A stretch of DNA of 64,000 nt, from IMG/VR virus record IMGVR_UViG_3300033463_000088, positions 11,081-75,080 of that record. The stretch is one strand, 5' to 3'. The notes below the pieces were generated by a model, which was given only the letters and a program-made list of their open reading frames with translations, was not told the DNA's origin and did no database searches. This document shows positions 18,736 through 60,359 of this stretch, one piece after another. Source of the DNA: a virus (taxonomy: Duplodnaviria; Caudoviricetes). How positions within the stretch are numbered: position 1 is the first letter of the stretch; every line of letters begins with the position of its first letter. The position numbers and the translations under genes were made by a program.

Positions 18736-18736
18736 T

Positions 18737-21700
18737 ATGAATCTAATCAGACGTCAATTATTAAAATTAATGCCAGTGGGTCATACCCTTGAAATCATTG
18801 CTGACAGTAGTTATGTTGGCAAGGTTTTTTATTGCACTTGTAAATATGATGGTCGAGTAGTTTCTGGTTCATGGATTATTTCATATGGCGACCAATTCGC
18901 GTCTATTAATGAAAATGGTAAAGTTACTATTTATGAAGACGTTCTTGGTGAAGATATTGAAATCACCTGTACTTATGAAGATTCTATTGCCGTTGTTGAA
19001 ATTAATATTTCTTATGATAACCAATTAACTATTGAATGTGCCGACACAATTACAGGCACTTCTGGTAATGCTTTTGCAAGATATAATTCTACTGTTGTTA
19101 CTCCTACTTGGTCTATTACTTCTGGTGGTGCTTATGCTTCTATTGATGCTACAGGCGCTATCACAATTACTGATTCAGGCCAAATAACTTTACAGGCTGT
19201 GTATACAACATATACTACTACTAAAACTATTAATGTTGTATACGACGCCGGAACTACTACTGAAACAACACTTGGTGATGATGGCTCAGTTACTACAGAA
19301 ACAACTACTACAACAACTGATCCTGAAACCGGAGCTGTTACAGAAACAACTACTTCCCAAACAACAAATGAAGATGGCTCTACAAGTTCTACTTCTATTG
19401 AAACAACTACTAATGAAGATGGTTCGAGTTCAACTACTTCTACTACTACAAATTCTGATGGTTCAAGTAGTGAAACAACTTCTACTACCTCTGCTCCAGA
19501 CCCAGAAACAGGTGCTGTCACAACCGAAACTAGCACTTCTACAACAAATGCTGACGGAACAAGTAGTGAAACAACTGCAACCATAGTTGAAAATGAAGAT
19601 GGTTCAAGTGAGTCAAGTTCCGAAACTATTCACTATGATGAGAACGGCGACGTCGCAGGTTCCACCGAAAATACAACTACTGTTAATACAGATGGTTCCA
19701 GCACAAGTCAAACAAACAACTACGATGAAAACGGCGATCCGACATCAACAACAAATAATGATGTTGACGCATCTGGTAATAGTTCAACACAAGAAATTGA
19801 ATATGATGATAATGGTGATCCTGTTGTCACCGAATATACTATCGATACTTCAGGCGGCAGCGGTGATGGTAAAGAGATTGAAGATGGTATCAATACTGAA
19901 TACTATGCCTTCGACACAACTAGAGGCTTTATTTTAGACATTGACTTTGTTATTGACTTTGCTCATCAACCAGCAAACCAAAACGAAAATCACCATAATA
20001 TTTTAACTGCAAAAAGAGCAAGCCCATCTCCTTGGTATGGCTTCCAAATTAGACAATCTGGCACCAATAAATACGTCCAATTAGGTACACAATTTGCAAC
20101 AGGTAACAATACTAATACTACAATTAGCCCAATTGGTATGACTAATAATATTGCTGAATATATTTTACAAATTACTTATGATCCAACTCTTGCTTCAAAT
20201 AATTTTATTTGTCGAGATTTAAAATCAGGCAATATTGTTTTTAGCGCAAGTAATAAATTCCCGGACATTGAAGCTCTTAAATACTTAAAAGTCTGCTTAG
20301 GCTACGCGATGGATGAAAATGGTGATCCGTATAGATATTCTAATATCGCTGTTAAAAACTTCTCCCTTGTTAAGTTATCTAATGTTCTCTCACCAAGTAT
20401 TAGTAGTAATGGTCGTTATATTATTATTACTACAAATGAAACAGGTGCTACAACATATTATAGATTAAATCAATCTGGCAGTTTCCAAGAATATACTGGA
20501 CAAATTGCTATGGTTAATGATACTACTGTTGAAGCTTATTCTATGTTAGATGGCTTCACAAGTGTAACTGTCTCAGAATATTGCACTTATACTGGTCTTA
20601 AAAAACCAACTATTTCTTGTGATGGCCAGCTAGTCACTATTACTTGTGATACAGTTGGCGCATCTATTCATTATAGACTAAATCAAACTGGTGAATATAT
20701 TGTTTATAATGCTCCAATTACTATCTTTGAAGATACTATTGTTCAAGCTTATTCTGAATTAGGCGGCGACACAAGTGAAACAGTTAGAGTAGTTTGTGTT
20801 TATGATGATGCTCATAACTACGCGGAAGATTATTTAACATTTAAGATTACTTCTAACGGAACTGTTGTCTGGAAGTCTATTGGCTCAGGTATGGCTAAAA
20901 CTATTCAATATAGTTTAAATGATGGCGCTTGAACCGATTTAGCTGCAACTGGTGGTGGTGCAACTATTACAGTTTATACAGGTGATGAAATTAGATTTAA
21001 GGGCTCAAATACTGCTTATGCGAAAGATAAGTCTAACTATTCTGGTTTTACTGGTGGCACTGCTACTTTTGACATTGAAGGTAATATCATGAGTTTAATT
21101 CATGGTGATAATTTCAGTGGCGAAACAGCTTTAACTGCTACCTATGCATTCTGCTCTATATTTAAACAAGCGGCAGTTGTTAATGCTGAAAACTTAATTT
21201 TACCTGCAACTACATTGACTAATTACTGCTACAGAGCTATGTTTAGTAAATGTCCTAACTTAGTAGTTGCTCCGGCTCTTCCAGCTACTACATTAACAAC
21301 AGGTGTTTATTGGTATATGTTTGAAGAATGCCCAATTACAACTGCCCCTGTTCTTAATGCAACTACATTAACAACTGAATGTTATGGTCATATGTTTACT
21401 GGTTGCGGAAGCTTAAATTATATTAAATGTTTAGCAACAAGTATTAGTGCAAGTAAAGCTTTAGAAGGTTGGGTTACTAGTGTTGCCGGTGTCGGTACAT
21501 TTGTCAAAGCTGATGGTATTGCTTGGTCTACTGGTGTTGCAGGCATTCCTTCTGGATGGACCACTTATGTTAATGGTCAAGAGCCAGAGCCAGAAGAGCA
21601 AGATGACGTCTGGAGAATTGGGGGTCAATCAGTTACATTACCTTATTCATTAAATGCTATTGACGGCCACTCATCTGGCTATGCTAAGGGAACTTATAAC

Positions 21701-23524
21701 TTTGTTGTAACTACTACCTTAGATGCTGTTCAACCAACTTATTTACAATTTGAACATGCTGACCAATCTGCTGAAATCTATGTTAATAACTCCTTAGTTA
21801 CTACACACTGGGGCGGTTATAACTCATTCACAGTAGATATTACTAATTATATTCATTTAGGGTCAAATAAAATTCAAGTTTCTATTTGTAATACAACAAG
21901 AAATACTCTCGCCCCTTGCGCTGGTGACTTTAACTTTAACGCAACTCTCGGCGATGTCTATTTAGTCTCAGGTGCTATTTTACCTGATACTATTTACGGC
22001 TATGATGGCTTCTGGATTAGCTCAGTTGTTTCTGATGCTGCCGCAGCTGTTACTGTTAAAACTACTGTTGCAAGTGAAGCCACTGTTGTATTGACTGTCT
22101 CAGACGGAACTTATACATATACTGATAGTCAAACAGATACTGGAGATATTACATTTAACTTTACTGTTAATAACCCGCATCTCTGGAACGGAAAATCTGA
22201 CCCATATTTATATGATTTCACCTTAGAAATTTATGATGGCCAAGATTTATGTTTCACTTCTACAAGACCTTATGGCTTCAGATATTATAGTTATGTATTT
22301 AATAATACTTCTGTTATTCCAGGAGAAACATATACTGGCTTCTTACTTAACGGCGCGCCATATTTATTAAGGGGCGTTTGCATGCACCAAGACTTGGAAT
22401 ATAAAGCAAATGCTCTTACTTCTGCTGATATTGCCCATGACTTTGAAATTATTCAAGATTTAGGCTGTAATTTTATCCGAACTGCCCACTATCCGCATCC
22501 AAGAGAATTCTATGACTGATGTGATGAATTAGGCATTGTCGTTCAAACAGAAACTCCTTGGGTCAATAAAGCTCAATCTACTTACCCAACTGATTATTAT
22601 GACCACTTAGGTAGTCAAGTTAGAGACATGGTTACTCAACATTATAACCACCCATCTATTATTTTCTGGGGTTTAGCAAACGAAATTACAACTGATGATA
22701 AAACCTTCGCAAAAACAAAAATTGAAGGATATAAAGCTATTATTAATACTTATGACACTTCAAGATATGTCGGCTATGTCGTCAGCCATAGCTATCCAAA
22801 CGGCTTAGGCACATTCAATGACCCAGATGTTGACTATATTGGTCAAAACTTATATGTTGGTTGGTATATTGATACAAATACTAATAACCCATCTTCAAGA
22901 ATTAATACTTGTTTAGGTTATGCTAATAATCATAATAAACCAATGGCTTTATCTGAATACGGCTGCGGTGGAACTCAACGTTGCCACTCTGTAGACTTTA
23001 TGACAACTACTACAAGGGGCAACAATCCAAGACACGATATTGAATATAATATGTGATTACATGAAGGTCATATCGCGGCTATTAAGAATTATCCGCAACT
23101 TATCTATACATCACAATGGGTTTTATTTGATTTCGCGGTCACAAGTAGACAAGAAGGTTATACAATTTGTTTAGATGGTGAAAATACTTCTACAAATGAG
23201 GACTTAAAGAGACTAAATAATAAAGGTCTTGTTGAAAGAGATCACGTCACTAAGAAAGATACATATTATTTATATAAAGCTTGGTGAAACCCAACAAGTA
23301 AGTTCGTTCATATCTGTGGCAAAGAGTTTACACTTATTACTAGTAGACAAGTTAAATGTTATACTAATGATGGTGATACATTAGACCTCTATATTAATAA
23401 CACTTTAACTGAGACCGCTGCTGTCTCTGATAACATTGCAATATTTACAGCAAGAACATTCTCGTCTGGCGACGTTATTAAGGTCCAAGGCGCGACGGTT
23501 TACGACACTTGAACAATTGCTTAG
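18737..23524 (+). CDS. 1595-aa multidomain protein: Ig-like, Thr/Ser/Asp-rich repeat, lectin-like, Fn3-associated repeats, LRR and GH2 beta-glycosidase
   Basis: Track ORFs 18737, 21089 and 22628 share a frame and are joined only by TGA (20930, 22517, 23054, 23285, 23510); the stop is TAG 23522-24. GH2 motifs: RTAHYP, FYD[W]CDELG, NHPSIIFWGLANE, SEYG, YKAW[W]N. Confidence 0.9.
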
Positions 23525-23531
23525 ATAAAAT

Positions 23532-23559
23532 AAAAAGAGCTCAAATCGAGCTCTTTTTT
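23532..23559. terminator. Bidirectional intrinsic terminator between convergent genes
   Basis: AAAAAGAGCTC-AAATC-GAGCTCTTTTT. Confidence 0.85.
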
Positions 23560-23576
23560 AATACTTTTTATTTTAA

Positions 23577-25238: not shown

Positions 25239-25496
25239 TTACCTTGCCGCCTGAGCATTCCAAGCTCTTATCTCTGCTTGGAGGTCAGGGTCTTCTAGAG
25301 ATCTACCAGAGGCAACAGCCATATACATTTTGTTATAGAAAAGAACAGCGGCATTTGATGGGTTATTATAAATCTGATTCCAGAGTTTAGTTAACTCATC
25401 TGCATGCTTTGCTGCATTACTATACATTTGATTTCATTCTTCTTGTGTATAGTTCTTTGCTATTTGATCACGTCTAAATTCTTGACCTTCTGCCAT
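25239..25496 (-). CDS. Hypothetical protein (85 aa), TGA(Trp) at codon 21
   Basis: MAEGQEFRRDQIAKNYTQEE[W]NQMYSN... extends the track ORF. The late motif lies 20 nt upstream (25517-25526). Confidence 0.65.
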
Positions 25497-25540: not shown

Positions 25541-26479
25541 TTATATATTACATTTAACTATGTTAAAGTCTTTTAATTGGTCTTTAATTTGGTCTTCATA
25601 GTCTGAATTTATAAGTAAAAACTTTGCTCCCTTAAGACCTGAGCCAACAAGCTTCTCACCATAAACGCCATCTATTTCACAAATATGATATTCTTCTTCA
25701 AAAATATTTACTTTTAAATTAAGCATACTTTGGGTTAAGCATGCGCCCATATAAGTCTCAGTTAGACCATCTTCATTTGCCCATCAGCTTGCACAATCTA
25801 CAATACACTCTTCAAAGTGAATAAACTGACTAATTAAAGTATTTGGCTTTGCTTCTTTAATTCTTGTAACATTATCTAAAAACTTTCTGTCAGCTGAGTG
25901 ATTATGTTGTTCATTATAAATTAATAAACCAGAATAATGTTTATCATCTAATTTAATATCAGCACCTAAATCACAAGTGCTTGTATCAATTTTCCAGATA
26001 CCTGGTTCATGTAAAATAGCTTTAAAATCCATTCTGCCGCAAGGAATTTGTAAATAATTATGTTCTACCCAATAGCCAAATTTTACTATTAAATTATCAC
26101 TTAACTCTAAATTATTCCAATAACAAATAGTTTTTAAAATGGAGATAATAAAAGCAGCTGATGATGAAACACCTAAGCCACTTGGTAAATCATTAGAAAT
26201 AGTAATATCACAGCCAGTATTTAATTTTAAGTTATTTCTTGCAAAGACATTAATACAGCCATCAACATAATCAGTCCAAGTATAACTTCTTTTTGACTGC
26301 GGTTGAAGGTTTACTTCATAATATGAAAATTCTTTGGAAGTAATAGAAAGTTTTTTATCTTCTCTTTTATTACTTTCAGCTATAATATATTTATCTATTG
26401 TAGAAGTAAGAACTGGTTCATTAATACAATCAAGGTAAGCACCAGCTCAATTAATACGATATGGAACTTTAATTTGCAT
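25541..26479 (-). CDS. GHMP-family kinase, galactokinase-like (312 aa), 2 TGA
   Basis: PYRIN[W]AGAYLD (compare P.RVNLIGEHTD), LPSGLGVSSSAA, PCGRMD and GVYGEKLVGSGLKG. Joins track ORFs 25784 and 25541. Confidence 0.85.
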
Positions 26480-26485
26480 ATATTT

Positions 26486-26494
26486 ATTATACAA
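26486..26494 (-). promoter_or_regulatory. Sigma-A-type -10 element upstream of the GHMP kinase
   Basis: TTGTATAAT 6 nt before ATG 26479 with no room for an SD, so possibly a leaderless mRNA. Confidence 0.5.
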
Positions 26495-26503: not shown

Positions 26504-26524
26504 AAAAACTCCAAATTAGGAGTT
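26504..26524 (-). terminator. Intrinsic terminator
   Basis: AACTCC-TAATTT-GGAGTT followed by a T-tract, at the P-loop kinase stop. Confidence 0.6.
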
Positions 26525-26960
26525 ATTCTTTAAGACTGCCATCAGCATTTATTATATCTGAGACATACTGTCCAGATTCTAAATAAATTTTTTGACAATC
26601 TACTTGATTAAGAGCTTCCATTTCAGTATCAAAAATTTGACTATACTCAGTAGCTCAGGTGCTATTTTGGTCTCGTTCAGAGAGTCTATTAATAATCTCA
26701 TCTTTTATTTCTGGTTTTGGCATAATAATGCAATCTACAGGAATCTTAAATCTAACTAAAGCATTTGTAGCTCTGAAATTATTAATCATAATATTATAAC
26801 CATGCGCCTTATAATACAAAACTATTCGACTAAAGATGGTTTCAGCAAAAGGTCCTGGAAAATATTCAGCTAATGCCCAGTCCAAATCTACTCAATTTAA
26901 ATGTGTTTTACAGAAATCTGTTTTACCTGTACCAGATGTTGCGACATAAATTTTTGACAT
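26523..26960 (-). CDS. Small P-loop kinase (nucleoside/nucleotide kinase-like, 145 aa), 2 TGA
   Basis: MSKIYVATSGTGKTDFCKTHLN[W]VDLD...RLSERD; N-terminal Walker A; stop TAA 26523. Confidence 0.75.
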
Positions 26961-26964: not shown

Positions 26965-28494
26965 TTATTCTCCTACTTTGCTTTCTAAAACAGCTAATCT
27001 TGTTTCAAGATCTTCAATTTTTTTCTTTTGGTCTTTTAATGCAAGAAGAGCAACATAAGCTAACTTAGCATCTCAAACACCTAATTTATGCTCTACTTCT
27101 CCAGTTTCTTGGTTTGGTATTTCAGCATCTCTAATTAATGCATTACGATATCTTTCTGGTAAAGCTGCTTCTAAATCTTGTGCAATAACACCAATACCTA
27201 TATTATGGTCTTCATCTGCCTTAAAACTAAACTCTACAATCTCTAACTTATCTAATAGACTATTAGTATCTAAAGTTGTAGGAGCAATATTTTCTTTAAG
27301 GCTTCTATCAGATGACATAGCATAGTATGAATTTCAGTTATTACTGTTAAACCAGGCTTCAGAGTGCGGACCACTTGCATTCTGATAAAGCGTTCCAGTA
27401 ACAAATACATCACCTCTAATAACTACACCTGTATCATCAAAAGCATCTATAAATCTAGAGGCAACACAGCCATTTGGATAGAAGCATCAACCATAATAGT
27501 TTGCGGTATCTGCAGGATGTACTGAAGTTTGGGTACCAGGAATAAGAAGAATTGGAGCAGTCATACAAACTGGATTGCCATTTTTTGGCTGAATACCTAA
27601 GTCATTTGCAGACTCTCATAATGAACTTCCACTACTAGAAGAACCTGTAGCATCATCACGTCATGCTGGATTACCATCAGCATCAGTTTTTCAAACTTTA
27701 TATGCAGCAGATGCACCTGGCGCAGAGACATAGCCAGCTTGTGTGACTGTATTTGCATTTCAGGTATTATTGTCTGTAGAACTAATTGTTATTTCACCAT
27801 CAGCAGATTTTGTTACAGTTGTGCTACCTCCACCCTTAATACTTAAAGTAGAATTACCACTTTGATTAGCTGTAAATGAAACAGCGTCAGTAGTGCCAGC
27901 TTGAATTTTAAATGTACCATTATTAACTGTATAAGTAGAATTTTCCCATGGAACACTAACATATGCTTTACTATTTGAGTCTAATTGAACAGCATATTTT
28001 TTCGATTCACCTTCTGGTAATGTATAACCGAGTTTAATACCACCAAGTGCACTGTCGGTAGCAGCTGATAAAGAATAAGCATTTGCACTTTCTGCAATTC
28101 CGTCTAATTTTGTTTTATCAGCAGCAGACATTAGACCCGCAGCAGACTGTGTAGCATTGTTATAAGTGGTATCACTATCAGAAGGAAGAGTAATAGTTTT
28201 TGTAGAAGCAGCTGTTACACGTCCTTTAGCATCAACTGTAATATAAGGGACACTAAATGTTCCTTCATGACCTGGGCTAGCATCAGATGATGGACCATAA
28301 CTATCAGCGCCAACGCCAGAATCAGCTAATCTACTAGCATTTAAAGTTCCAGATGAAATATTACTAGCATTTAAGCCTGTTAAACCAGAGCCATTACCTA
28401 AAAGTGTTCCGCCAACAGTTAAATTACCAGATATATTTTCATCATCTGTTACTCTTAATTTACCACGAACTATTGTACTATTTAAATCAGCCAT
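26965..28494 (-). CDS. Tail fibre/spike with C-terminal S74 intramolecular chaperone (509 aa), 7 TGA
   Basis: Track ORFs 27760 and 27073 join through TGA. SDRSLKENI cleavage motif, GVIAQDL and a terminal coiled coil (KKKIEDLETRLAVLE). Confidence 0.88.
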
Positions 28495-28535: not shown

Positions 28536-31235
28536 TTAATTTTCTATTAACTTATTAATGCATACTGCACCAATTTTACTTAATTTTGCAGTTGATTGCC
28601 CTTCAATAACCTCATAAGTTGACACAAAATTACTCTTATCTATTGAGGTTTTTCCATAATTATAAGTGCTATCAACTTCTTCTATTCCAAGGCCAGTAAA
28701 CCAAACTGTTGCATTACCAGAGGTATCAGTTCTATTAACCTGAACCCAGAAACCATAACTATCATTTTGTGCTGCGTACCTTGTATAAATATCAAAATGA
28801 TGCCATTTACCATCCTTTAATACTTCTTCACTTGTTGTTGTTGCAGCAGGTGCCCCACCTCAACTAGTATCTCCTTTTTTACCATCTAAATATCAAGTAA
28901 CTGGAGATCAGTTATTGCTGTGCCCTAAAATATTAATTAAAGTTCCAGAATGAAGCTGTGCATCAAATGAAATATGATAGTATTTTCCATATGTAAATAA
29001 GCTGTTTGCAAATTGGAATCCAGCTCAATGTCCACTAATTTGTATTATATTATTATCAATAAAAGATGCACCTGGAAAATTAGTGCTATTTAGGTCTAAA
29101 AATTTAAAAGTATTAGATGCCTCAATAGTATTTCCAGTAAATAAATTTGCACTTCTATCAATAGCAGCTTTTCTATTATATTCAGCCACTATATCAGCGC
29201 TAGATAAGGTAGTATTATATATTTTAATATCTCCAATTATTCCATGGAATGTATAACTTCCAGCACCACTTCCACCATAATAACAAATATTTAAATTACC
29301 GGGCCATGTCGATAAATTAACCCCAGTAAAAGCATAACAATGCCATGCATCATCAAGTAATGGATAATTATTGACTTCTCCATCTCTATATGCTGTGATA
29401 CTTCCAGCACTATTATGATACCAGCCACCCCCAGAATTAACTGCAGCAAAATAATATGTTGTGCTTGTATCTTCTGCCAATAACATTTTAGGATATGCAC
29501 TTGAACTTGGATATTTAGCTCAAATAATAACAGTCCCCGTAGTTAAAAAACTAAAGTTAGATGTTTTTATATATTGATTTGTTTCTAATAAACTTAAACC
29601 TAATTTACCTGGACCACCACTAGAGCTAACAGAAAGAGCATTGTTATAGAGATTGCCATTATAGCCATAACCACTGTTGTCTATTATCCTAGGCAGCTCA
29701 AAAACTTTTATATTAGTTATATAAATATTTCTTGATCTTACACCACTTGTAAAACCAGAGTCATCAAGAATCATTTTAGTTGCATCTGTTCATTGAGATG
29801 ACTTATACTCAAATATTGCATAACAAAACCCATTTCTTAACCTTAATGTATCAGCATAACTTTGTGCACAAATTGGAAAATCTCAATAATCTGTGTAGCT
29901 AGAAAAACCACTTACGTCGCAGGTAATAACATAATATTTACCAAATGTCATTTCTTTATTAAAATGAACATAAAAATAAGTATCACCATCACTACCGCTT
30001 GTATGTAAAGAACTAGCATTATCTCGTACAACCCGGCCACCGACTGAAATGTCACTTACAAGATTGTCTGTTGGTTGATTAAAAATATCAGAGCAAACTG
30101 TTCTATTATTTTCTAAGTAACAACAAGTTACATAAACTTCATTGCCAGCAGTAACATAAATACCAACTAAATGATCATTTGTGCTACTCGGACTTGTTTT
30201 TTGTTTGATACCCTCAACTTTACAAAGGTAGAAACCATCTCCTAAAGATTCAATAGATGTTCAATGGCTATTTGGAACACTTCCATCAACTTGTCCATTT
30301 CAAGCTGGAAAACAAATACTGTCTGTAATTGGCTCACTATTTTTTGATTTAATAATTGCTTGGAATGAACGGTATCCCCCATCAAAGATGTTTTCATGAT
30401 ATAATAAATATGGATTGGTTGCTCCAGCACTATTACCAAACTTATGAGAATAATTACTAAAACCAGGGTAGATATATTTTTTATCGGTATTTTGAGCATA
30501 ATACCCTTGATTACCAGTTGAACCCCACTGACCTCAGCCACCGCTTGAAGAAGATGTATCAAATGTTGGATATGGTTCTACATTCGCAAGTATATTTATA
30601 TTTTGCTCAAAATTATAATGTAAAACTAAACCCTTTGAAATTTCTTTTACTTCTTTTTGGGATAATGCATGGTCATAAATACGAGCATCATTTAAATAAC
30701 CCGCAATAAATTTTTCACCGCCAGCATTACCACCAATATAAATATATGCACTTGATAGTGCTGGAACATATGAAGTTGTACCGGTTTTAACTAAAGCACC
30801 ATCAACATATAACTTTAAATTTGTTCCATCATATGTGCCACAAATATGATGTCAAATACCATCTTTAATTGCTGCACCTGAGTTAATATTTGTATTTGAT
30901 GACCCATTAGAAACATTAAAATATGGAATACCAGAGCTATTTATATCAATACCTACTCTAATATTATTCCAACTTGTCCCAGAAGTTCCTAAAACAAATA
31001 TTTGTGATCAAGTTGAATGACTTGTTGGAATTTTAGCTCAAATAGCAAGTGAGCAGCCATTAGAGCAAGATGATAAATCTAAAGCACTGCTATTTAAAAT
31101 AGTAGAATTAAAATAATAACAGCTTCCAAGTTTTCCAGAACTATTAACAGTTGCACCATTATTAGTTAAAGATATAGCTGAAGTGCCTTGATCATTTAAA
31201 TTACCGTTAAGAGGCCACCAATGTATTAAACTCAT
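28536..31235 (-). CDS. LamG/ConA-like lectin-domain protein (899 aa), 13 TGA
   Basis: LIHWWPLNGNLND...I[W]HHICGTYDG..LKLYVDG...LNDARIYDHALS, plus a second LamG (WHCYAFT...IGDIKIYNTTLS). One frame, closed only by TAA 28536. Confidence 0.88.
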
Positions 31236-38000: not shown

Positions 38001-38053
38001 CTTAGCGCATTATCAACTTCTTGACCAGTAAATATACTTTGATACTCTGCCAT
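35003..38053 (-). CDS. Fibre protein with about 11 His-x-His motifs (1016 aa), 2 TGA
   Basis: ATG 38053 with GGAG SD, TGA at 37985 and 35510 (NK[W]MTASF), stop TAG 35003. HTH, HIH, HVH, HRH and HSH repeats. Confidence 0.82.
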
Positions 38054-38084
38054 ATGCTGTCTCCTTCTTAAAATTAATCTCGTA

Positions 38085-45729: not shown

Positions 45730-46355
45730 TACTCTATTCTACCTCCATCAATTGTAATTTCTAAATTAGCTACTGCAGAAGCTAAATCTGCTTTAGTAGC
45801 TGCTTCAGTTTTTGTATATACTTCTGACTTCTTTGCATAAGTTATAGCAGCATTAATTTTTGTCTCAGCTTCTGCTTTTGATGCTGCACCAATATCTTCT
45901 GGTGTTAAATTTACAACGCCAGTTTTACCATTAATAGACTCAACACCAACATCAGCGCTAATAATACCATTTTGAATTCTAATATGGTCACCAGCAACTA
46001 AACTAGAAGATTCTGCTAATTCTTGAAGTCTATTTCTAACCTCTTCGCTTAAGTCTTCTCAGCGAATTTCTTTTCTAAGAACTGTTGTAGCAACAATTTT
46101 TGTTGGCTTTCCATTATCATCAATATATAAATAAGCTTCATTTGATAAATTATCAATAGTAATATCTTCAACAGATTCAGAATCTTTTAATGCAAAAGGA
46201 ACATAAAGCTTAGCAATATTTTCTGATAATGTTTTAAGCTTTAAGTCAGAATAATCAGTTTGTTGACGAGTGGCAGACTGACACTCCTTTACAGAGGCAG
46301 TCGTGCTATTATCAACTACTGTAGGTTTAACAGGTTTTGGGATTTCTCTTGGCAT
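45729..46355 (-). CDS. Tail-region protein (208 aa), 1 TGA
   Basis: Continues past TGA 46059 through VESINGKTGVVNLTPEDIGA (fibre repeat) to a TAA overlapping the next ATG. Confidence 0.75.
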
Positions 46356-46581: not shown

Positions 46582-49500
46582 CTATAAGTCATTAGTATAA
46601 GGAATTAAGTTATAGAAACCAATACCACTACTATGGCAGTTCCAATATGGACCATAGACACTGGCGGTCATTTCAGGAGTAATAATTGCTGGAATATGAA
46701 TATCAAGATTTTGGTTTGTTTGTGAGAACCAACCATCAGAAGGATCAACAACCTTGAAATCACTACTTGTTAAGTATAAGTTAGCTCTACGTAAACCAGT
46801 ACAAGATTCAAATGCATTATCACCAATAGAAATAACTGACATTGGAACAGTGATACTAGATAATGAAATACAATAGAAGAATGCTAGGTTTCCAATTACC
46901 TCTAAGCCTGATGGTAAAGTAATATTTACTAAGCTATCGCAAAGAGAGAAGGCACGTTCACCAATTTCTTTAATTGTAGCAGGTAATGTAATATTTCTTA
47001 ATGCTAAAACACCAAAATTATCTGCACTAAATACTCTATCTGGAATCTTCTCAGTCCAAGCAAATTTAATTGCATAATCACCACTAATTGGACCAGCAGT
47101 GGTTAATAATGGACAACCTTGTAAGCAGAGAGAGCCAAAGCTCATTTCAGCAGCTTCAAAAGTAATACTTTCTAAGCTAGTACAATTTTGGAAAACTGCG
47201 TCACCTAAATTAACAACAGATGTGCCTAATGTAATTTCTTCAATAGCCGTGCAGTTTGCAAAAGCACGTTCACCTAAGGTTGTTATACTATTAGAGAAGC
47301 TAATATCAGTAAGAGCTGAGCAGTTATTAAATGCATAACTTGAAATAGTAGTTAATGGACATTGAGGAATAAATGTTACAGACTCTAAACTTGTGCAGCT
47401 ATCGAAAGCATAACTTCCTAATAAAGCTAATTTAGTTGGTAAAACAACAGTAGTTAGGTTATTACAACCATAGAAAGCACGTTCATAAATTTGTTTAATT
47501 GAACTTGGAATTTCATTTGTAATAACAGTAATATCTTCACCATGTTCTCTTCCTGAGACTTTGAATGTTGTTGCACCAGTGCATCCTTCGAATGTTGACG
47601 CAGAAATTCTTGTCATAAATTTAGTCAAATGAATAGCAACTAAATTTGTAGCATTTCTAAATGCGCCAGCTCTTGTATATGGAACATCATAAGAGAAGCT
47701 AACATCAGAAACTGTGTTAATTGGGACAATTGCTGGGTTATCATAGTTATATCCTAATAAGTAAGTACCAACTTTTCTTGATAATTCAATAGTTTGAGGA
47801 CCACTTGAAGCATAAGTATGTTGAATAGAAATTTGTCCATAACTATTTATACGTTCTGGAGAAGAACCATCACCCCAGTCAATCTCAACACCATTATATT
47901 CTGTTTGAGAATAATTTAGTGTGATAGTAAAATCATTTTCTGGAATTGATAATGAAATATAAGTTGGAATAGTAACAGCATCCCATCTAGCATTTAACTG
48001 AATATTTTCAACAACTTCATCAGTCATAAATTGCCAGATTTGATTATCATTTGTTAACCAAGCAGTTAAAGCATCACCTTGATATAATTGAGGATCTGGT
48101 TCATTAATCAGATGTCTATATAAAACAGGTTGGTCTGCTAATGGTTCACCTTTTTGGTTCATATTAAAGCTTACTCAATAAGTTTTAGGTTGAACAGAGC
48201 CATTAATAACTGCTGGACCATCAATAATAATTTCATCACCTTGTTCTAAGAATGTATTATTATAAGATAATGTTAAATTTTCATAATGACTATCACAAGT
48301 TGCTCTAACAACAACTGTTGTGCCAAGTAAAGCAAAGTTTGTCATTGTGACACCATCTTCAGTTAATTGTAATTGAATTTGATCAACAAAAGTATCTCTT
48401 TCATTATGAATATTTGGATTTAATGTAATTGTATCTGCATGTAATTTTGCCCAAGAAACATTGCCTTGGTCATCTTTAACATGAAAGTAATAGTCACCAG
48501 GACCACTAATTGTATATTCGCCTTCAAATAATGTTACAGGAGTAATATCTGTCCAATTTGGGTCAGCTAAATCAACTTCTTCACTGTCTGTAACAATCCA
48601 GCCAGTAACACCCATGTTATCAGTTGCTCTAAATGCAAACTTATTGAAAGCAATTCTTGTTAAAGTAACAACTGGGACGTTTTCATCTTGCCATCTTGCA
48701 GCAAGAACAACGTTCATTGTAGTTGGGAAGTTGAGAATATCACCAGAGATAGTCTTTGTTGCAAAGTCAACAATATCATTATTTGCTGTATATCAACCTA
48801 AGAAACGAACACCTGAAGGAATTGTGCTCTCATCAATTGTTGGTTCTGGAATTAAACTACCATAAAGTAAATCATTATATTCTGGTTCGACATTAATAAC
48901 ATCAGAACGTGTATCATAAATAATATGGTAAGTTTGAGTATGGTCATCATAAATAGCATGAATATCTAGGTCAGTTAAAACTTCTGAATAAGATGTATCC
49001 CATCTATTAAATGTGTAATAAAGTTGAGGAATTGGTGCTCTTGTTGGAATACTTGGAGTAATAGCATAAGTTCCGCGTTCAATAAATTGAACATCATGTT
49101 CAGTTTCGTCATTCCAGAAGGTAACAGTGCAAAGAACCTTAGCATTAATAGTAACTTCTGGATACATATCTAATAATTCTTTCCATTCAGCATAAGAAAC
49201 TGGGTTTGTTTCAGAGCCAGGAATATGAATTATACCAGTAATTTGTGCTTTATCAGTTGTATCACCTTTGGCATCTTTACCTTTCATGCTATTAAGTTTT
49301 ACATAAAGTTGTCTAATATCATCAATAGTATCAACAGTTTCATTGATATTAATTAAACGAACATTAGAACCTTCTGGCATATTATGAATAATACCAAAAG
49401 TATCCATAACAGCTGCTGGAATATCTTCTAACCAAACAGATGTTAATTTATTTGTGCCTGCTAAAACTAATTCTTCTAAGTTTGGGTGATTTCTAATTGT

Positions 49501-52500
49501 TAAGTCTGTAATTGAAGCTGGTAAATGAATTCTCTTTAAGTTACCACCAATAGGGAAGTTAATACCTTGAATATTAGTATTATCAAAATAAACATCTTCA
49601 ATACTTGTACAGTTAGATAAGTCAATAACTTTTGTTTCACCTGTTCCTAAAGCTGAACAGTTTCTAGCATCAATATATGTAAGTAAGTGGTTATTACCAA
49701 CGTTAAGTGTAGTTAATTTATTATTTGAATAACCATCAGCATTAGAACCAATTTGTAATCTTTGAAGCTTTGTAGCGGCAGAGAAATCAGCATAGCCTGG
49801 TTTTAATGCAGAAATATCGCCAACGTCTCTTAATAAGTCAGCAGAATAGATGATGACAACAGAGTCAGATCCTGCTGGATCCCAATGTAATGGAGGAACA
49901 ATAGTATAAGCGGTATCTTTTTGGGCATCAACTGTAACCATTAAGTCATCGACTGCTTGGTCAAAGACGCCTGTAATATAGCAGTTAATGTATGGAGTAA
50001 CAGTTAAATTAGCTCTTTGGTAAGCACGGAGCATAATATTTTCACCCTTAGCATCACCAGTTCTATATTTACTGTCTAAGTATCTAAATCTATTCCATAA
50101 CCACCATTTTCTTTGTTCTTCTTTAGAACCTTGCGCCATACCTAAGTAAGTAGCATCATTATTTTTAATTAATGGTTCTAAATATTTTGTATAAGAGTCT
50201 TCATTAAAGATAGATGCAGACCAATAAGCTTGGTGGTCTTCAAATAATTTTTCAATAATATCATAAGACCAAGCCATATCACCACCAGCATTGCCAGAAC
50301 GTAAATCAGCATATAAAGCTTTTAATTCATTAGGGAATGCATCTCTTAAGTTATTCCAGAAAGTTGAGTCTTGTCCATTATAAACGTTCATACCGCCAAC
50401 AATATCTGTATCTTCAGCGTCATAGTTGAAGACTAAAAGACCTTCGTTGTTAGTACCAATCGCAGTATCCATGTCGTATGGGAGCCAGAATCATCTGTTT
50501 CCACCATCGCCTGGTTTATGGCTCTTTAAGTAAGCCATCATTGCGTTTTTAGCACGAGAGTCAACCATTAAGAATAACTCAGTATATAAGTAATAGAATA
50601 ATGAAGATTGTAAATCGAAATGTAATGTTAATTCATTTCTGAATTTTTGCAATTTGGCTTGTTTTTGTTCTTCTGTGTCTGTTGATAAACGTCTTGTAGA
50701 TGCAATCCAAGTGCAAATTGCTTGTAGTTTATCTAATTCGCCTGGTTGAGTTCCATATGGATGTTCATCATCACCATAATCTTCTGGATATCTTGACTCA
50801 AATGAAGAGTCCCAGTTAGACAAGTCATCATTTTGGAATAAAACAAGTGGTGTAGTATTGTTAATAAATTCTCAACATTCATCACCATCAGAGAAACCAA
50901 AGGTATCTTTGTTATCTTTATCATTATTAAAGTTCATTTTACCGTAGAAATAAGTTTCTGCAGTATTATCATGGAACATAATAATTGGGAAACCATCAAT
51001 ACCAGTTCTAACACGGTCTTTTGTGATATAACCATCAGCTGTATCATCAGCATCTTGATCTAATTCAGATGGCATATAGAAGTTTTTAGTTAATTCAAAG
51101 TATCTAACAAGTTCAACGTTATTTGCGCCTTCTGAAGAAGCAACGTCAGCTTTAAAAGTAAACTTCTTTTCTTTCTTAGAAAGTGGTGGTATAAGCTTAT
51201 ATTTATTGCTATGGTTGCCATCTATATCATCAAAACCTTCTTTAAAGTTAATCTTGAAGTTCTTTCTATAATAGTATTGAGAAGATGTACCTTGAACGTC
51301 GACACTTGCATCTTTAGCAGTAAAATATCTGTCATCACTACCTGGATAAACAAATTCAACATCCATTAATTTCTTATCTTTTTTATAGTTTGGTAAAACT
51401 TCACCAGTTAAAACCATATAAGGAGTTCTACTTGGAATTTTTTCAATAATAACTTTACCTGTTTCATCAAAGTTATCATTATCTTGGAAGTAAATAGCTT
51501 TTGTAATTGGGTCCCTCATGTCAGCGATCCAGTTATTAACTACTTGCTTTCTTGTTAATGAGTTATCATAAATACGAATAGTATAAATATCTAATGTAGC
51601 ATCATTGCTACCTAAAATAATATTAGCAGCAGGTGCTTGTTCAAAAGTATCACCGACAGGGTATCTAGCAACACCAGACATAATGCCGTTGATATACATA
51701 TAGATTAATCTATTTTCAGTACGTTTTTCAATAACGAATGCTAATCTAACTCTTTCGTTTTCTTTATATTGGGTAGAAAGAGAAGATAATTGAGATTGGA
51801 ACTTTGCTAATTGAGGAGTAATGTAAATACCTCTACCAACAACTTCATAAGCAACAGTAATTCTGTCACCATTAATGAAGTATTCACTTGGTGTTCCATC
51901 ACGCTCTTCTAACTTGATATTAATACCATAAATATTATCTTCACCTAAATCAACAACTTCACCATCTAAAATCCAGTTTGTGCCATTATGTAAGAATAGA
52001 TATGTTTTATGGTCTCCTCTAACTGCTTCAACGAATTTATTATTGTCAACATCGAGAATAGTAAAATATTTAGCACGGTCATCTTCACCTGCTAATGTTT
52101 GACTATATGTTAAGGAATCGCCACCAGTTAAACATTCGAAGATACGAGACTCATATTTCTTAACGTCTGTAGTAGCAAATTCAATTTCAATTGTTTTACC
52201 TGTTTGTTGTAAGTCTTTATAGAATGGTTGATATGGAATTTCAACACGAGCATCACCAGAAAGTCTTAAAACAGTTGCACCTTCGTCATCTTGGACCCAA
52301 CCATTTGAGCTCCAGTTAAAACCTGTTAAGGTACAGTGAATATCTCTATCAAAGTCATCCCATTTTCTTCTAACTTCTGGAGTTTCAGCATTACTTCTTC
52401 CAAATGTGCTTAAATATAAAACCTGGTTCTCAGTAACTGGGTCAACTTGAATAGTGCTTTCATAAATATGAACGTTAAACATTCTAATAATATCGCCAGT

Positions 52501-53745
52501 TTGAACTGTATAAATATGATTACCAGTGACAGTTGGTCTAATTTCTCAGTTTTGCCAAGCCATATCAACTGATAATGGGTCTCCAATTGTTTCACCATCA
52601 ATATATTGAATAACAGTAGAATTATTTAATCCTGGTGTATATACACGGTATCTAATATTAAATGCAACATATTGTTCTTGTTCTGACTCACTAGGGAATG
52701 TAGAAGCAATAATTGGTGTTTGATTACCTGCAACATAGCAGATTAAGTCATAGTTTAAGACATTAGATGTAACTAAGTCTTCACCTAAAACTGCAGTAAA
52801 ATAAACACTTAAAGTATGAGCACCATGAGCTTGTGCTGGAATAATCTTTGTGCATTGTTCACCAGTTGTTTTAATAACATCTTGTCCAATTTCTCTTCCA
52901 TCAACAATAAAGTGAACTGTTTTTGCAACATCACCAATTGGGACATATGTATAAGTAATAAAGCCAGTATAACTGACATCATCTTCAAATGCAGATGTTA
53001 ATTTAAGAGAAACAGCGTTAATGTTTCCGATAATATTTTTAGTAGTTGAATAAGTATCAGTAACTTTGAATTCAACTTTATTACTGCCTGATTTTAAATA
53101 AGCAGAAATATCACACTCATAATCACCTTGAGGAACAGACTTCTTAGCAACTAATACATCATTGACATAAACGAGCATTGTGCCGTTTCCAGTTGGATCT
53201 CCGTCTCTCTTAGATGTCCAATTAACTTTTAATACAACTTCTGCACCGACAGCAACAGATGTTGGCCAATATGGTTCTTTTGTGACTGGATCTTTATTTA
53301 CTAATGTGACTGTAGTAACACCTCCACCACTACTGCCACCAGAGCCATCTCCGCTACCTCCACCTGAAATACTATAAGGACCTGATACAATGTATTCACC
53401 ATTTTTACCAGGATTTCCTTGACCAGTTGTTTCATCAACTTCAGATGTAAAATACCAATAAGCTTTTCTAGCAAATTGTTTATCTACGTCAAAATACATG
53501 CCCTTAACTTTTTTATCATTTGCTTGGGCAATAATATTTGCAATATCGGTTGTATTTACTTTTTGTGCTAATTTTTCTTCTAAACCAGTGATTGCTGAAA
53601 TAGGATGTTGATCATCAGCATCCCTATTAAATAATCTGTTATGGTCTGTTACTCCGCTTCCACCAGTGGCAGTAGCTGTTTTATTATCACGGGAAGAAAT
53701 AGAACCATTAAATGATTGTTTAGATTTTATTGTTCCACTTGCCAT
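46582..53745 (-). CDS. Giant 2387-aa surface/virion protein: Ig-like, LamG-like, CotH-like, LRR, InlB-B-type repeats, PKD, BspA-type LRR; 5 TGA
   Basis: Six track ORFs share one frame, joined by TGA at 52546, 50872, 50491, 48793 and 48175. Motifs VQGTSSQYYYRKNF, MVDSRAKN, [W]FWLPYDMD, IDWGDGS and IxxxAFxxCxxL repeats. Confidence 0.87.
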
Positions 53746-54244: not shown

Positions 54245-57200
54245 TTATTCACCAACTTCTGGAGTTGGGTCAGATGAACCTGGGTCCTCAGTATTATCTG
54301 GGTCAGATGGCTCTGGATCAGGTGTTGGCTCTGGTTCAGATTGAGGTTCTGGTTGAGGAGTAGTTCCAAGTGTAATAACAATTGTATGTTCAGTATCTTT
54401 AGATGTTGGAATATAAGCTCTCTTAATACGACATTCATCTTTATTCTTAGCAGCCTTCCAGACAACTGTAGCATCACTGCCTTCTAAATCACTGGTTGCA
54501 AGAATTGTACCTTCAACACCATCAACAAGAACAGATGTAATAATAGCACTATGAGTCTTATCTTCATCATTTAATTGATGGTTGACCTTAAATTGATAGT
54601 CTTGTAAACCATTAACAGTTAATGGTGCCGTAACGACTGCCTTAGTTATTGTATCTTCAATATCATAGCTTGTATTATTTACAAAAGTTAATGTAACGTC
54701 TGCAACATCAACAACAACTTCAACAGTAACTTCAATATTACCAGCTACTTTAGTTAAAGTATAGTATGGTTTAGCATCTGTTGGGTTATTTAATTTATTA
54801 AAGTTATTATTAAGTTTTTTAGCACTTATTTGGAAAGCATAACCTTCTGCTGGAGTTCCCTCAACTCTAAAGTAAACTTTCGCAACATCACCAGTTGTAT
54901 CAGCTGATGGTAAACCATTTGCATCATCATATGCTTTATCGTACATTGTTCAAGTATTTTTATTCTCAACAACTATTGGTTCAGCTGGCATTTCAAGAAC
55001 ATTACCACTAATTAAACCTTCATCGAGCTCTGGATGAGCTGGAGGATTAACTGCACCTGGACCATATTTTACATATTTTTCAAGATGGTCTGCACCTCTA
55101 AAAATTCTAATTGTTGGAAGACTTGCAACTGGATAATCTAATGGAGCAACAACATTATATGTAATAGTGTGAGCTGGTATTTCAGATTCTAAAACAGCAT
55201 TTAATTCAATTGTTAAATCAGAATTAACTTTTGTAAATCTATATAAGCCAGGAATACCTGTGTTCCATTGTGTTTTGAAATTGTTATAACCATCTGCTGG
55301 AGTTACTCTTGGTTGTAAAACATAACCTGGAGTATTCCAATTTGGTTTAAAATTGAATTGGCCAGTCTTATCGATTTCTGGATAACCAAAGTCACCATCT
55401 CTTGCATAAATTGGACGACCATCTTTAACATAGTCTTTATGTGTTTCTGGAGCATCATCAATATCAATACGCTCTGGGCAAGCATATCTGTAAATATCAA
55501 TACTATCAGCAACATAAACTGTCTCATCATTAATTGTAACTGGACAATAGGCATGATCACCTAATGGACGACCGTCTGTTTTTGATGTATCAACAACATA
55601 ATTGATAATATTAATTTTCTTTGGAGCTCTAGCATCTAATTCAGCTTTTAAAGCATCATAAACAGCTTTAGAAACAAATTTTTCGTCAGCGGCAGCTTTT
55701 GAATAGCCATCGCCAGAATAAACTGTCCAAGGAGAACTACTTACTTCGTCAATAGATGGAATTTCAGCTTTAACATCTTCTGGAGCAACATAATTTCTTG
55801 CTCCTACATTATTTTCAACATTAGCAGCTGTATATAATACCGCAGTATTTACATATGACTGACCTACTTTTTGTAAAACTTCACCAGTTAAAGCTTCTAT
55901 AGAGACATCAGCACTATTTTCAGCAGCAATACTACCTAAAATAGTAATACCTGTATGATATTGAGTAGCAAGGATCTTACTTTGATATGTTAATTCGTCA
56001 CCGCTAGTAGTAATTAATGCATCAGTGGTATTTCCAATAATATAAATTGGGTCATCAGAGGCACTACGTTTAGTTGGGTTAGAACCAAACTTATTTATAA
56101 TATCATCTGGGTCTTCACCTAAACGAATATTATCAGCATAAACACCCATTGAACAACCGGTAATTCTTCTTAAACCGTCACCAGAGAATAATGCATAACT
56201 ATTTGGAGCAAAAACACCACAATCAGCAGTTCCGCAACCATCAATAATTACATCACCCTTAGAAGTAATTTGAACGCCTTTATTGGATTGGATAATATTA
56301 CCATGAGCTTTCTTAATAAAGATTAATTTATCATCATTTGTTTTAATCTTAACACGTTTTGTGGTAGAAGTATGAAGAATAAATGGGTCAGTTTCTTCAC
56401 TATCATTGTAGTAAACATCATTAAAAATTAAATCAATCTTTTTATCATCTGCTAATGGCTTTGTAATAATTTTATAGCCAGTAAAATTACCAGAAACTTT
56501 ATATTCAGTTGTTTCAGCACTTCCAGAAACTAATGTAAATACATTATTTGCATCTGGCAGAATCTGATCTAATGTATCAGCATTTTGAATAATTGGGCCA
56601 TTAGTAAAGTAGAAAAAATCTGCTGGATCTGTTTCTGTAATTTCAGCACCGTGAAGATTATTTAATCCTGCTAAAACTTTAACTCCTGAACTAACTGCAT
56701 GTCCAACTTCACCTAAATAAATGTTGGAATTAACAATATATTGTTTTGCTCCACTTGAACGACTTTCAAAAGCTGTTTCATTGCAGTGAGCAACATGGTA
56801 TTCACCACCTAAGATGAATAATCTACCGTCATCATCTGGGTCATCATGTCCTGCAGTAAATGCATCATTAGCATTAGCAACATAGAAATAACCATCAGTG
56901 ATTTTTAATAAGTTTTTGCCATGGAAAGCATCATGTTCTGCATCAACATAAATGTGAGGATTACCATCAACATAAAGTTCAGAAGCTTTAAAACCATGAC
57001 CTCTTGTATTTCTAACTGATAAATAACCAACACCAGTAATTGCTAAACCATTTTCGGAATTAATAACGCCTGGGTCTGCATCAGCATGTTCGCCTTCAAT
57101 ATCAACAACTAAATAGTTTTCAGTGCCATTAGCAATTTCAACTACAAGTCTCTTATCTTTTGGAGTATAATCAATAGCATAATCAACATCAGAGAAAATA

Positions 57201-57880
57201 CTAACATTATTTAAGATAATTTTTGTTCTATTATTTAAGGTATCTTTTAATTCACCATGTCCAATAACGATATGACCTTCTAAACAACCAGTTAATTCAT
57301 AGGTTCCGCAGGCTTCTAATTGGATAGTGCCTTGTGCTTGAGGAACACCATTAACTTTAAAGACGCTACCAGCATCATCACCAACAGTTAAAATTCTTTG
57401 AGCACTGTTGATTTTTGATTTCCATTCTTGTTCGACTTCTGTATCAGAAAGTTTTGTAACTCTTAATGTACCTTGATTAGCAGTACTTACTGGATAATTT
57501 AAGGCATTAACAACAGAATAGACACCTTCTTCAGTTAATTCATCTAATGAAACACCATCAACTGATTGATAATTGATGTCTTCATCTTCTTGAATAACTA
57601 AATCGCCTTCACCAAGAATGCTTTGACCATTAACAGTTTTAATGTTAACGCCAGAAACTAATGTGTCTTGTTTTGTTCCAGCAGTAATTTCTTCAAGATG
57701 TTCAGTAATATTATCTACTGTATCTTTTGCGCTTGTAGCAGCTTCATAAGCAGCATTAGCAGTTCTTTCAGCTTCTTCTGCGATAGAGTGGGCATTTTCA
57801 ATACCTTGCTCCATGTGATTGAAGTTTGTAGCGCTTAATTTGGTTTGGTTATTTACCCATTTAATCTTATCATAAGCCAT
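54245..57880 (-). CDS. 1211-aa protein with Cthe_2159-like carbohydrate-binding beta-helix domains, 1 TGA
   Basis: GTYELTG..EGHIVI, IILNNVSI, GVINSENGLAITG.G.L, HDAFH and DAFTAG patterns. KNT[W]TMYDK joins the two track ORFs; Pro/Glu-rich tail. Confidence 0.8.
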
Positions 57881-57895: not shown

Positions 57896-58435
57896 TTATC
57901 TACAACAAGTTAAGTTAGTTGAACAATATAATGTTTGTGAGCAGTATTCAGCAGCTCTTGGTTGTTTTGGACCACCAATAATTTCTGAATAGAGCGTTGC
58001 AACCGGCCAAAGAGGGGGTTGTCTTTCAATAATAATATCGTCATCATGTAATTTGACAGCAATTTCATATTCAATTGGTTTATCTGCTGGATATCTATCA
58101 GTAATTTCTGGTTTTAATTCAAGCCAAACTGTTTCTGTTAATTCATCATAAGAGAATTCATAACCAGCTTCGCTTGAACCATAATCGATAGCGCCAGTTT
58201 CCTCATCCATAAATGAGAAGTAATCAATTAAACCATTGTCATATTTAAAAATGAATGTTAGTTGTGAAACTTCTTCATAACCATAAGTTTTTCCAACGAA
58301 AGAAAATTTTAAGTCAGCTGTTCCGCCCTTATCGATTTTAGTTACATTTCTAAATCCCTGAGGTTTATGATTACAGAGATCGCCTTGCATTTTTGTTTTT
58401 AATTTGTAATCGTACATAGCAATCCTCCTAATCAA
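57896..58435 (-). CDS. Hypothetical structural-region protein
   Basis: 179-aa ORF; the true start may be MYDYK. Confidence 0.65.
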   Translation of the reverse strand: MIRRIAMYDYKLKTKMQGDLCNHKPQGFRNVTKIDKGGTADLKFSFVGKTYGYEEVSQLTFIFKYDNGLIDYFSFMDEETGAIDYGSSEAGYEFSYDELTETVWLELKPEITDRYPADKPIEYEIAVKLHDDDIIIERQPPLWPVATLYSEIIGGPKQPRAAEYCSQTLYCSTNLTCCR

Positions 58436-58874
58436 TACTTAAAATGCCATCAGTATCAGCAAATAAAATGTATTTTTCACCATTAATCATAGCATAAAGT
58501 TCTACACGATAATTTCCATAAGGTAATTCGTCGCCAGCATGAACTTGAGCAACTAAAACGTCATCAGAGAACTTATAAACCTCTGGAGAACACATAACTT
58601 TATGTCTTCTGTTAAGAATGTTGCAAACAACATCACTTTCCATAATTTCATTAATCATGCCATCACCACAAAGGTCGCTAAGACTAAAATAAATGTTAAA
58701 ATCAGAGTTTCTTTTAGCTAATAATCCCAAAACCTCACCTTTAACATTAGTTAATGGGACAGCGCCACCTGCAAAAGCAACATTATGCTTATGACAGTCG
58801 TGCCAGACTATTGGTTCTGGAAACTTTTTCTCATTGATATTGTAATCGTAATTATAAAACATGTCTTTTGCCAT
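58428..58874 (-). CDS. Hypothetical structural-region protein
   Basis: 148-aa ORF; its N-terminus (MFYNYDY) resembles that of the next gene. The late motif is at 58896-58905. Confidence 0.65.
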   Translation of the reverse strand: MAKDMFYNYDYNINEKKFPEPIVWHDCHKHNVAFAGGAVPLTNVKGEVLGLLAKRNSDFNIYFSLSDLCGDGMINEIMESDVVCNILNRRHKVMCSPEVYKFSDDVLVAQVHAGDELPYGNYRVELYAMINGEKYILFADTDGILSID

Positions 58875-58895
58875 ATCAATTCAACTCCATCACAA

Positions 58896-59846: not shown

Positions 59847-59891
59847 ATCACGACCCTCCATTTCTTGAAAAATATTTTGCAATTTTTCAAT

Positions 59892-59901
59892 TAATTTAGC
59901 A
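59892..59901 (-). promoter_or_regulatory. Putative late-promoter motif TGCTAAATTA
   Basis: Intergenic, upstream of the holin-like pair. Confidence 0.6.
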
Positions 59902-59918
59902 CTTAAATTAAAATTAAT

Positions 59919-60359
59919 TTATTTTTCTATTTTATCTATTGCTTTTGTACCTCATTTTGTAGCTTGTCCTTCAAACCAAATAGCATCATAATCTTTATTT
60001 GGAAGACCTTTTCTACTTCTATAATTTTGATATTGGTATCTAATTGCTGAAGGAATTGCAATAACAAATGGGAATAAAGGACCTCAAATTAAATTTTGTA
60101 GACTATGACCAAATTCATGTCTTCTAGTATGTTGAAATCAGGTTTCATCTGGACATTCAGTAGTATATCCACCGCAAAGAGAGACTGCACCAAGGTCTAA
60201 ACCGCCCCAATTGCCGCCAATTTCTACAATATATGAATAGCCATTCTTATGAACCTTTCCTTTTAAGAAAATAATACAGAAACCTGTAATAATTAAACCA
60301 AGAATAGTCATTAAGCCTCCCCAAGTGAGACTTCAAATCCAGAATAAAATTTTTTTCAT
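59919..60359 (-). CDS. Membrane HExGH zinc metalloprotease-like protein (146 aa), 4 TGA
   Basis: Not in the track. MKKILFWI[W]SLTWGGLMTILG...RRHEFGHSLQNLI[W]GPLF...YDAIWFEGQATK[W]G...-TAA. Confidence 0.8.

Follow-up and report, generated by a model that had tools for sequence, protein, structure and literature searches.

Within the 64,000-nucleotide stretch of viral DNA considered here (the window: bases 11081-75080 of the 75,080-bp linear IMG/VR viral contig IMGVR_UViG_3300033463_000088), a 42-kb block of tail fibre and adhesin-like genes uses TGA as a tryptophan codon that is interchangeable with TGG, while the neighbouring replication genes keep to the standard code; a phage-borne module would be responsible for the switch, and for this reading as a whole we would put the probability at roughly 0.85. 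The amino acid meaning of TGA, its restriction to one module and the existence of a decoding module in relatives all emerge from the analysis. An earlier note, made from the letters of the window alone, had proposed that TGA is reassigned to tryptophan (genetic code 4). The source is an uncultured jumbo phage with a genome of roughly 225 kb, of which the contig is about one third (CheckV completeness ~33%); the GC content is ~34% along the whole window. A search with its PolA sequence returned 17 related viral contigs, among them G001 (223,464 bp, with terminal repeats and rated complete) and G002 (237,392 bp, also rated complete), and a later search added G006 (232,051 bp, complete by CheckV estimate). 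Phages in GenBank are distant, their PolA identity being at most 41%, and those closest among the named ones have Firmicutes hosts.

When TGA is read as sense, the region 18737-60359 contains 73 in-frame TGAs in 16 open reading frames (ORFs), the longest of 2387 amino acids (aa). If the ORF 58428-58895 is dropped, since its two TGAs (residues 2 and 5) may lie 5' of the true start, there are 71 TGAs in 15 ORFs, which is the hand count of the earlier note (about 70 TGAs, counted as 71, in 15 genes). Among the genes that it had checked, that note had also found none ending in TGA, and this extends to all 54 ORFs of at least 60 aa, which stop at either TAA (40) or TAG (14); since a change from table 11 to table 4 leaves the coordinates of those long ORFs that lack an in-frame TGA untouched, no gene terminates in TGA. 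A comparison of coding densities, of the sort that the note had proposed, gives the same picture: ORF cover of the 75-kb contig is 0.775 with table 11 and reaches 0.933 with table 4, as against 0.815 with table 15. Table 11 splits the 18.7-60.4 kb region into many medium-sized ORFs (150-700 aa), and this could be taken to mean that the TGAs are real stops, the result of pseudogene decay, sequencing errors or a crowd of short genes. Such an explanation is hardly credible. It is TGA alone that breaks the frames in this block, never TAA or TAG; the table-11 pieces of each gene share a single frame; and both the Pfam domains and the homologue alignments continue through the TGA positions. Moreover, TGAs occupy invariant tryptophan columns, and some are common to relatives from other samples. 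The 16 ORFs, with their in-frame TGAs, are the following.

18737-23524, plus strand: 1595-aa protein with a C-terminal GH2 glycosidase; five TGAs, at residues 732, 1261, 1440, 1517 and 1592
25239-25496, minus strand: 85-aa ORF; one TGA
25541-26494, minus strand: GHMP-kinase-like protein amid the fibre genes; two TGAs
26523-26960, minus strand: 145-aa ORF; two TGAs
26965-28494, minus strand: fibre protein with a Peptidase_S74 chaperone domain; seven TGAs, three of them opposite TGG of the paralogue 31256-34987
28536-31235, minus strand: 899-aa Laminin_G_3 (LamG) protein; 13 TGAs
31256-34987, minus strand: 1243-aa fibre paralogue; seven TGAs
35003-38095, minus strand: 1030-aa protein whose family was not recognised; two TGAs
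38152-38679, minus strand: 175-aa ORF; one TGA
38754-41516, minus strand: 920-aa protein with Ig-like (Big_13) domains; five TGAs
41575-45081, minus strand: 1168-aa protein with two tandem CotH kinase-like domains, in the fibre cluster; 15 TGAs
45729-46355, minus strand: 208-aa ORF; one TGA
46582-53745, minus strand: 2387-aa leucine-rich-repeat protein of BspA type; five TGAs, which link six same-frame table-11 fragments
54245-57880, minus strand: 1211-aa protein with a Cthe_2159 carbohydrate-binding domain and a weak minor-tail N-terminus; one TGA
58428-58895, minus strand: 155-aa ORF; the two doubtful TGAs mentioned above
59919-60359, minus strand: 146-aa ORF; four TGAs, and seven in its G001 homologue (76983-77525)

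To learn which amino acid is read, we tallied the residue opposite each TGA in homologues of the LamG, CotH and GH2 proteins, which jointly contain 33 TGAs; for the CotH protein the homologues were 150 cluster representatives, taken from the results of an exhaustive HMMER search. Tryptophan fills 1910 of the 2727 homologue cells in the pooled columns, against a background of 2.2%, and is the plurality residue in 25 of the 33 TGA columns, compared with 30 of the 40 TGG columns of the same proteins. The per-column log-likelihood is -37 for Trp, -118 for Tyr, -124 for Phe and -147 for Gly, which places Trp 81 units ahead of Tyr and 110 ahead of Gly. At the 13 LamG sites, Trp occurs in 426 of ~590 cells (121 of 121 at site 128), and at the 15 sites of the double-CotH protein in 1172 of 1763 (149 of 149 homologues at site 345, 148 of 148 at site 824), again over a 2.2% background. 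In the GH2 protein, sites 1440 (117/120) and 1517 (116/117) are nearly invariant; site 1592 is Phe in most homologues, and at site 1261 Trp is only the plurality residue (40 of 120, with Tyr 33 and Arg 21), Leu occupying the position in the best PDB relatives. The motifs with which the earlier note had illustrated TGA on Trp-conserved sites could all be located, namely FYD(TGA)CDELG (22517) and YKAW(TGA)N (23285) in GH2, AP(TGA)DFD (42612) in CotH and I(TGA)HH (30854) in LamG, but the first of these is GH2 site 1261, where no tryptophan is conserved. A comparison of the 1168-aa CotH protein with solved structures gave no sequence match.

The same tallies speak to the question of whether TGA could specify some other residue, either glycine, as in code 25, or cysteine or selenocysteine. 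The ORFs alone cannot separate table 4 from table 25, and ARAGORN labels the tRNA(UCA) of the relatives, to which we return below, as "SeC". Glycine, however, fills just 47 of the 2727 cells, and one of the 33 TGA columns has it as the commonest residue; cysteine has at most six cells in the LamG tally and does not figure among the leading residues when CotH or the pooled columns are counted. The tRNA in question is 75 nt long with a short variable arm and a tRNA-Trp anticodon loop, which is not the selenocysteine form, and at TGA sites of the window TGG is found in close relatives. We therefore regard Gly and Cys/Sec as excluded.

Because some homologues may themselves have been translated under table 4, the DNA of homologues was checked as well. 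The metagenome scaffold L073, readable under table 11 and with a GH2 sequence 91% identical to that of the window, has TGG at 1261, 1440 and 1517 and keeps TGA at 1592. The nearest bacterial GH2 genes are 56-62% identical and come mostly from rumen metagenome-assembled genomes (Bacteroidales, Bacteroidia, Firmicutes, Verrucomicrobia or unclassified), which suggests that the rumen is probably the habitat of the phage. All six of the bacterial loci that cover residues 1440 and 1517 have TGG at both, and internal stops are found in none of 80 bacterial GH2 loci. A second relative, L074, which is 87% identical across the LamG N-terminus and readable only with TGA as Trp, has TGAs at 66, 76 and 128 in common with the window, and at residues 6 and 89 it has TGA where the window has TGG; the TGAs common to the window and its relatives come from separate samples. 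(The LamG protein as a single query against viral contigs gave no close relatives.) Exchanges of the same kind are found inside the window. In the fibre protein 26965-28494 the TGAs at 27762, 27693 and 27663 stand opposite TGG at 33169, 33097 and 33067 of its paralogue (49% identity over 195 aa), so that all three pairs on which the earlier note had relied appear in the alignment. The two CotH domains, 42% identical (E = 1e-122), provide further TGA/TGG pairs at residues 615/136, 375/855 and 467/963; the first is the one that the note had singled out, with RGHW (TGG, residue 136) of domain 1 opposite DHQ(TGA) (residue 615) of domain 2. Such codon swaps among relatives, bacterial genomes and paralogues indicate that TGA and TGG act as synonymous codons. 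Taken with the homologue columns, they make Trp as the meaning of TGA strongly supported, and the assignment is about as firm as sequence alone permits.

What the recoding does not do is extend over the whole contig. The fibre block lies between two groups of genes that are written in the standard code.

384-18134, minus strand: replication and nucleotide-metabolism block (PolA, SSB, primase, DnaB, a DnaC-like loader, FolD, formate-tetrahydrofolate (THF) ligase, ThyA)
60438-62825, minus strand: a metallophosphoesterase gene and others; no TGA; the G001 homologues are at 42-45 kb, beside the early block of that genome

In the early block (23 ORFs, 5673 codons) 85 TGG codons are accompanied by at most one in-frame TGA, and this single TGA, residue 12 of the ORF 8150-8509, is probably 5' of the true start. 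The fibre block, by contrast, has 73 TGA and 141 TGG in 13763 codons, TGA being about one third of its Trp codons (Fisher p = 8.6e-12 for TGA versus TGG in the two blocks). Off-frame TGA density is alike in the two (3.8% and 3.5%). TGA use starts and ends exactly at the block edges (18134-18737 and 60359-60438), and the 11 kb of contig to the left of the window, with clamp loader, RecA, sliding clamp and nuclease genes, are nearly TGA-free. The early block is syntenic with G001 at 19-42 kb, and the genes that flank the fibre block on its two sides have their G001 homologues within 3.5 kb of each other (41.5-45 kb), so that the recoded block sits as a cassette between standard-code genes; from this gene order the 42-kb block looks like a cassette that was relocated or inserted in comparison with G001. 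The label "genetic code 4" in the earlier note is thus right as regards TGA = Trp and goes too far as a statement about the genome, since TGA is confined to 18.7-60.4 kb. Judging from these codon counts, a narrower description, module-restricted recoding in a jumbo phage, is the appropriate one.

The alternative is a genome-wide code 4 common to the phage and a Mycoplasma-like host, with no switch at all. In Mycoplasma and Spiroplasma (table 4), UGA is read as Trp by tRNA-Trp(UCA) throughout the genome, release factor 2 (RF2) has been lost and TGA is never a terminator. The window resembles these organisms in the reading of UGA as Trp and in the absence of TGA terminators anywhere on the contig; the contig is AT-rich (~34% GC), and the complete, recoded G006 has no detectable suppressor tRNA, all of which would be compatible with such a host. 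The window differs from them in excluding TGA from an 18-kb block of 23 genes, and a phage of a code-4 host would have no reason to exclude TGA from its early genes. The contrast between early genes (at most one TGA to 85 TGG) and presumed late ones (73 to 141) is repeated in G001 and G006. In-frame TGA, moreover, occurs in 19 of the 54 ORFs, as against ~90% of the genes in code-25 phages of code-25 hosts (Borges et al., bioRxiv 10.1101/2021.08.26.457843). The relatives hold both a tRNA-Trp(CCA) and a tRNA(UCA) together with their own tryptophanyl-tRNA synthetase (TrpRS), and the nearest GenBank PolA sequences are those of phages of standard-code Firmicutes. A shared code 4 is thus quite improbable. 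For the standard-code host of the module-restricted reading there are indirect hints, the avoidance of TGA in the early genes and the affinity of PolA to Firmicutes phages; the formate-THF ligase, used as a query against bacterial genomes for a further hint of the host, gave no match.

The machinery that might carry out such a restricted recoding is found in the relatives. All three complete ones (223-237 kb) are TGA-recoded and have a TrpRS, and two of the three have a tRNA(UCA). Reading TGA as sense raises ORF cover from 0.61 to 0.87 in G001 and from 0.59 to 0.905 in G006, and the replication regions of both are TGA-poor. The tRNA(UCA) of G001, G002 and the fragment L071 is a 75-nt cloverleaf with discriminator G73 and a short variable arm, and its anticodon loop, CUUCAAA, differs from that of the tRNA-Trp(CCA) in these phages only in having U in place of C34. 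The trpS genes of G001 and G002 match TIGR00233 with 304 and 317 bits (cutoff 177), have no internal stops and are ~2.5 kb from the tRNA(UCA); the TrpRS homologue of G006, 58% identical to that of G001, is known from tblastn only. Both tRNA(UCA) and TrpRS lie in standard-code regions, in G001 and G002 beside a Lon protease and a large tRNA array. A phage TrpRS alone was rejected as a mark of recoding, as many other large phages also have one, without a tRNA(UCA) in its vicinity. In the 146-kb fragment G003 (PolA 60% identical) no suppressor was found and the code signal is ambiguous, with a cover of 0.68, 0.80 and 0.75 under tables 11, 4 and 15.

The Lon protease (TIGR00763, 557-707 bits) adjoins TrpRS at 7596-10100 in G001 and at 231.1-233.4 kb in G002, and L071 resembles G001 over the Lon/TrpRS/tRNA region by tblastx. 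Lon was considered as a universal partner of TrpRS and rejected, G006 being without it; any role for it in a code switch is pure speculation.

We would picture the recoding in the following way. The phage would infect a host with the standard code and have its early genes translated with that code. A module that is itself written in the standard code would then make ribosomes read UGA as Trp; it would consist of a Trp-like tRNA(UCA), charged by either the phage or the host TrpRS and probably assisted by the phage enzyme, and the fibre proteins would be made only late in infection. In the window phage the module would sit in the missing two thirds of the genome. By analogy with the relatives, this phage probably carries a TrpRS; that it also carries a tRNA(UCA) is somewhat more likely than not. 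The idea that the module might lie just past the left end of the contig, as strict collinearity with G001 would have it, had to be abandoned, the first 2.3 kb of the contig matching G001 at 215-217 kb.

Several observations weigh against this scheme. On the 75-kb contig no tRNA, TrpRS or release factor was detected; ARAGORN, with introns allowed and relaxed scores, gave no credible tRNA (its sole intron-containing call was dismissed), and Rfam at gathering thresholds found nothing in the window. As the contig is a one-third fragment (~33% of the genome), this absence is uninformative. It does mean that the "internal proof" claimed in the earlier note is one of which amino acid TGA stands for and not of actual translation, the decoding machinery being absent from the fragment. 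More troublesome is G006, which is complete and heavily recoded and in which no tRNA(UCA) appeared at any ARAGORN setting or among the Rfam tRNA matches; a phage-borne suppressor is consequently not universal in the lineage. Release factor 1 (RF1, PF00472) was found neither on the contig nor in the three relatives G001, G002 and G003, while control genomes matched. In the replication block to the left of the window, a weak RecU-like ORF (contig 9841-10317; 21.7 bits, cutoff 25) appears to span one TGA. Finally, the recoded genes are fibre- or adhesin-like (Peptidase_S74, LamG, Ig-like, two CotH domains, BspA-type leucine-rich repeats, Cthe_2159 and the GH2 fusion), and the window yielded no gene for a capsid, portal, terminase or lysis function, so that calling the fibre block "late" rests on analogy with other phages.

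Some of these observations would be accommodated if UGA were read as Trp without a suppressor tRNA, perhaps by near-cognate decoding with a host or phage tRNA-Trp(CCA); a phage factor, for example TrpRS, or lost RF2 activity might assist it. G006, with its TrpRS homologue and no tRNA(UCA), is what one would expect in that case, the window contig has likewise yielded no suppressor, and in published code-4 phage genomes a TGA suppressor is detectable in only ~35% (bioRxiv 10.1101/2021.08.26.457843). Nevertheless, two of the three complete relatives as well as L071 do have the tRNA(UCA), the absence from the window contig carries little weight with two thirds of the genome missing, and decoding would have to be efficient for a block with 73 TGAs, of which one gene alone has 15. 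We consider this explanation unlikely. Unlikelier still by a little is the version in which the conserved phage TrpRS, perhaps with partners like Lon, is the real switch, in the window phage as in the others, either boosting tRNA-Trp(CCA) at UGA or removing the host RF2. A module with a suppressor tRNA accordingly stays our preferred reading.

Ivanova et al. reportedly described stop-codon-recoded phages as early as 2014. The preferred reading has its closest counterpart in later work on phages that read TGA as Trp in standard-code hosts, among them the clades Jade (~210 kb), Sapphire and Agate (Borges et al., bioRxiv 10.1101/2021.08.26.457843); recoding in jumbo phages has been surveyed elsewhere (PMC13037316). 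As in those phages, TGA is found here opposite Trp, it is structural-type modules that are recoded while replication genes keep the standard code, and the detectability of a suppressor tRNA varies among related phages. The Jade phages possess a module of suppressor tRNA, TrpRS and RF1 (bioRxiv 10.1101/2021.08.26.457843), and among the relatives of 223-237 kb, G001 and G002 carry a standard-code tRNA(UCA) and TrpRS in the manner of this "code-change module". Unlike the Jade module, that of G001 and G002 stands beside a tRNA array and Lon and not visibly upstream of a lysis cassette, and no RF1 was found in G001, G002 or G003; the window fragment is without the module, and in its recoded block only one Trp codon in three or so is TGA. 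Phages that read TAG as Gln (code 15), of the crAss-like and Lak groups, have been validated by metaproteomics (PMC9523058); they too have recoded late genes and a phage suppressor tRNA, but the codon and the amino acid are different, and table 15 barely raises the cover here (0.815, versus 0.933 with table 4). All in all, the window fits published late-gene recoding in every testable feature except RF1.

Some further features of these genomes deserve mention. Within the fibre block, the gene at 45085-45729 is free of TGA; its 214-aa product has the N-terminal domain of a major tropism determinant (Mtd_N) and could be the target of a diversity-generating retroelement. Enzymes of folate one-carbon metabolism are encoded in the standard-code block: FolD at 8512-9297, formate-THF ligase at 9703-11454 (677 bits) and thymidylate synthase at 16277-17122. 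These genes are also present in G001, with 55-86% identity, and hence are long-standing in the lineage. PolA is interrupted in relatives: in G006 (211132-214831) it is in three pieces, ~1 kb and 25 bases apart and without stops inside them, and in G001 (29012-30979) the largest ORF spans only 655 of 1000 residues. G006 also has a 61-nt tRNA-like element (206885-206945; Rfam tRNA, 40 bits) with acceptor, D and T arms and seemingly no anticodon arm. At the right end of the window, the ~1.1 kb from 62904 to 64000 contain no convincing ORF, only an 87-aa one that requires two TGAs, and have no Rfam match at gathering thresholds.

TGA recoding in phages is already known, and the general picture of phage recoding is unchanged by the present case. 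In practical terms, annotation of this contig and its relatives requires TGA to be read as Trp, since table 11 fragments the very large fibre and adhesin proteins (those with GH2, with double CotH and with LamG, and the 2387-aa BspA-type one), whose functions are then lost. With this finding, the phages whose late genes are written in a code that the host would be unable to read include one more lineage, of 220-240 kb and probably of rumen origin. The border between its standard-code and recoded modules is sharp, and TGG and TGA are exchanged even among relatives that are 87-91% identical. With sister genomes both with and without a detectable suppressor tRNA, this lineage is suited to asking how the switch works.

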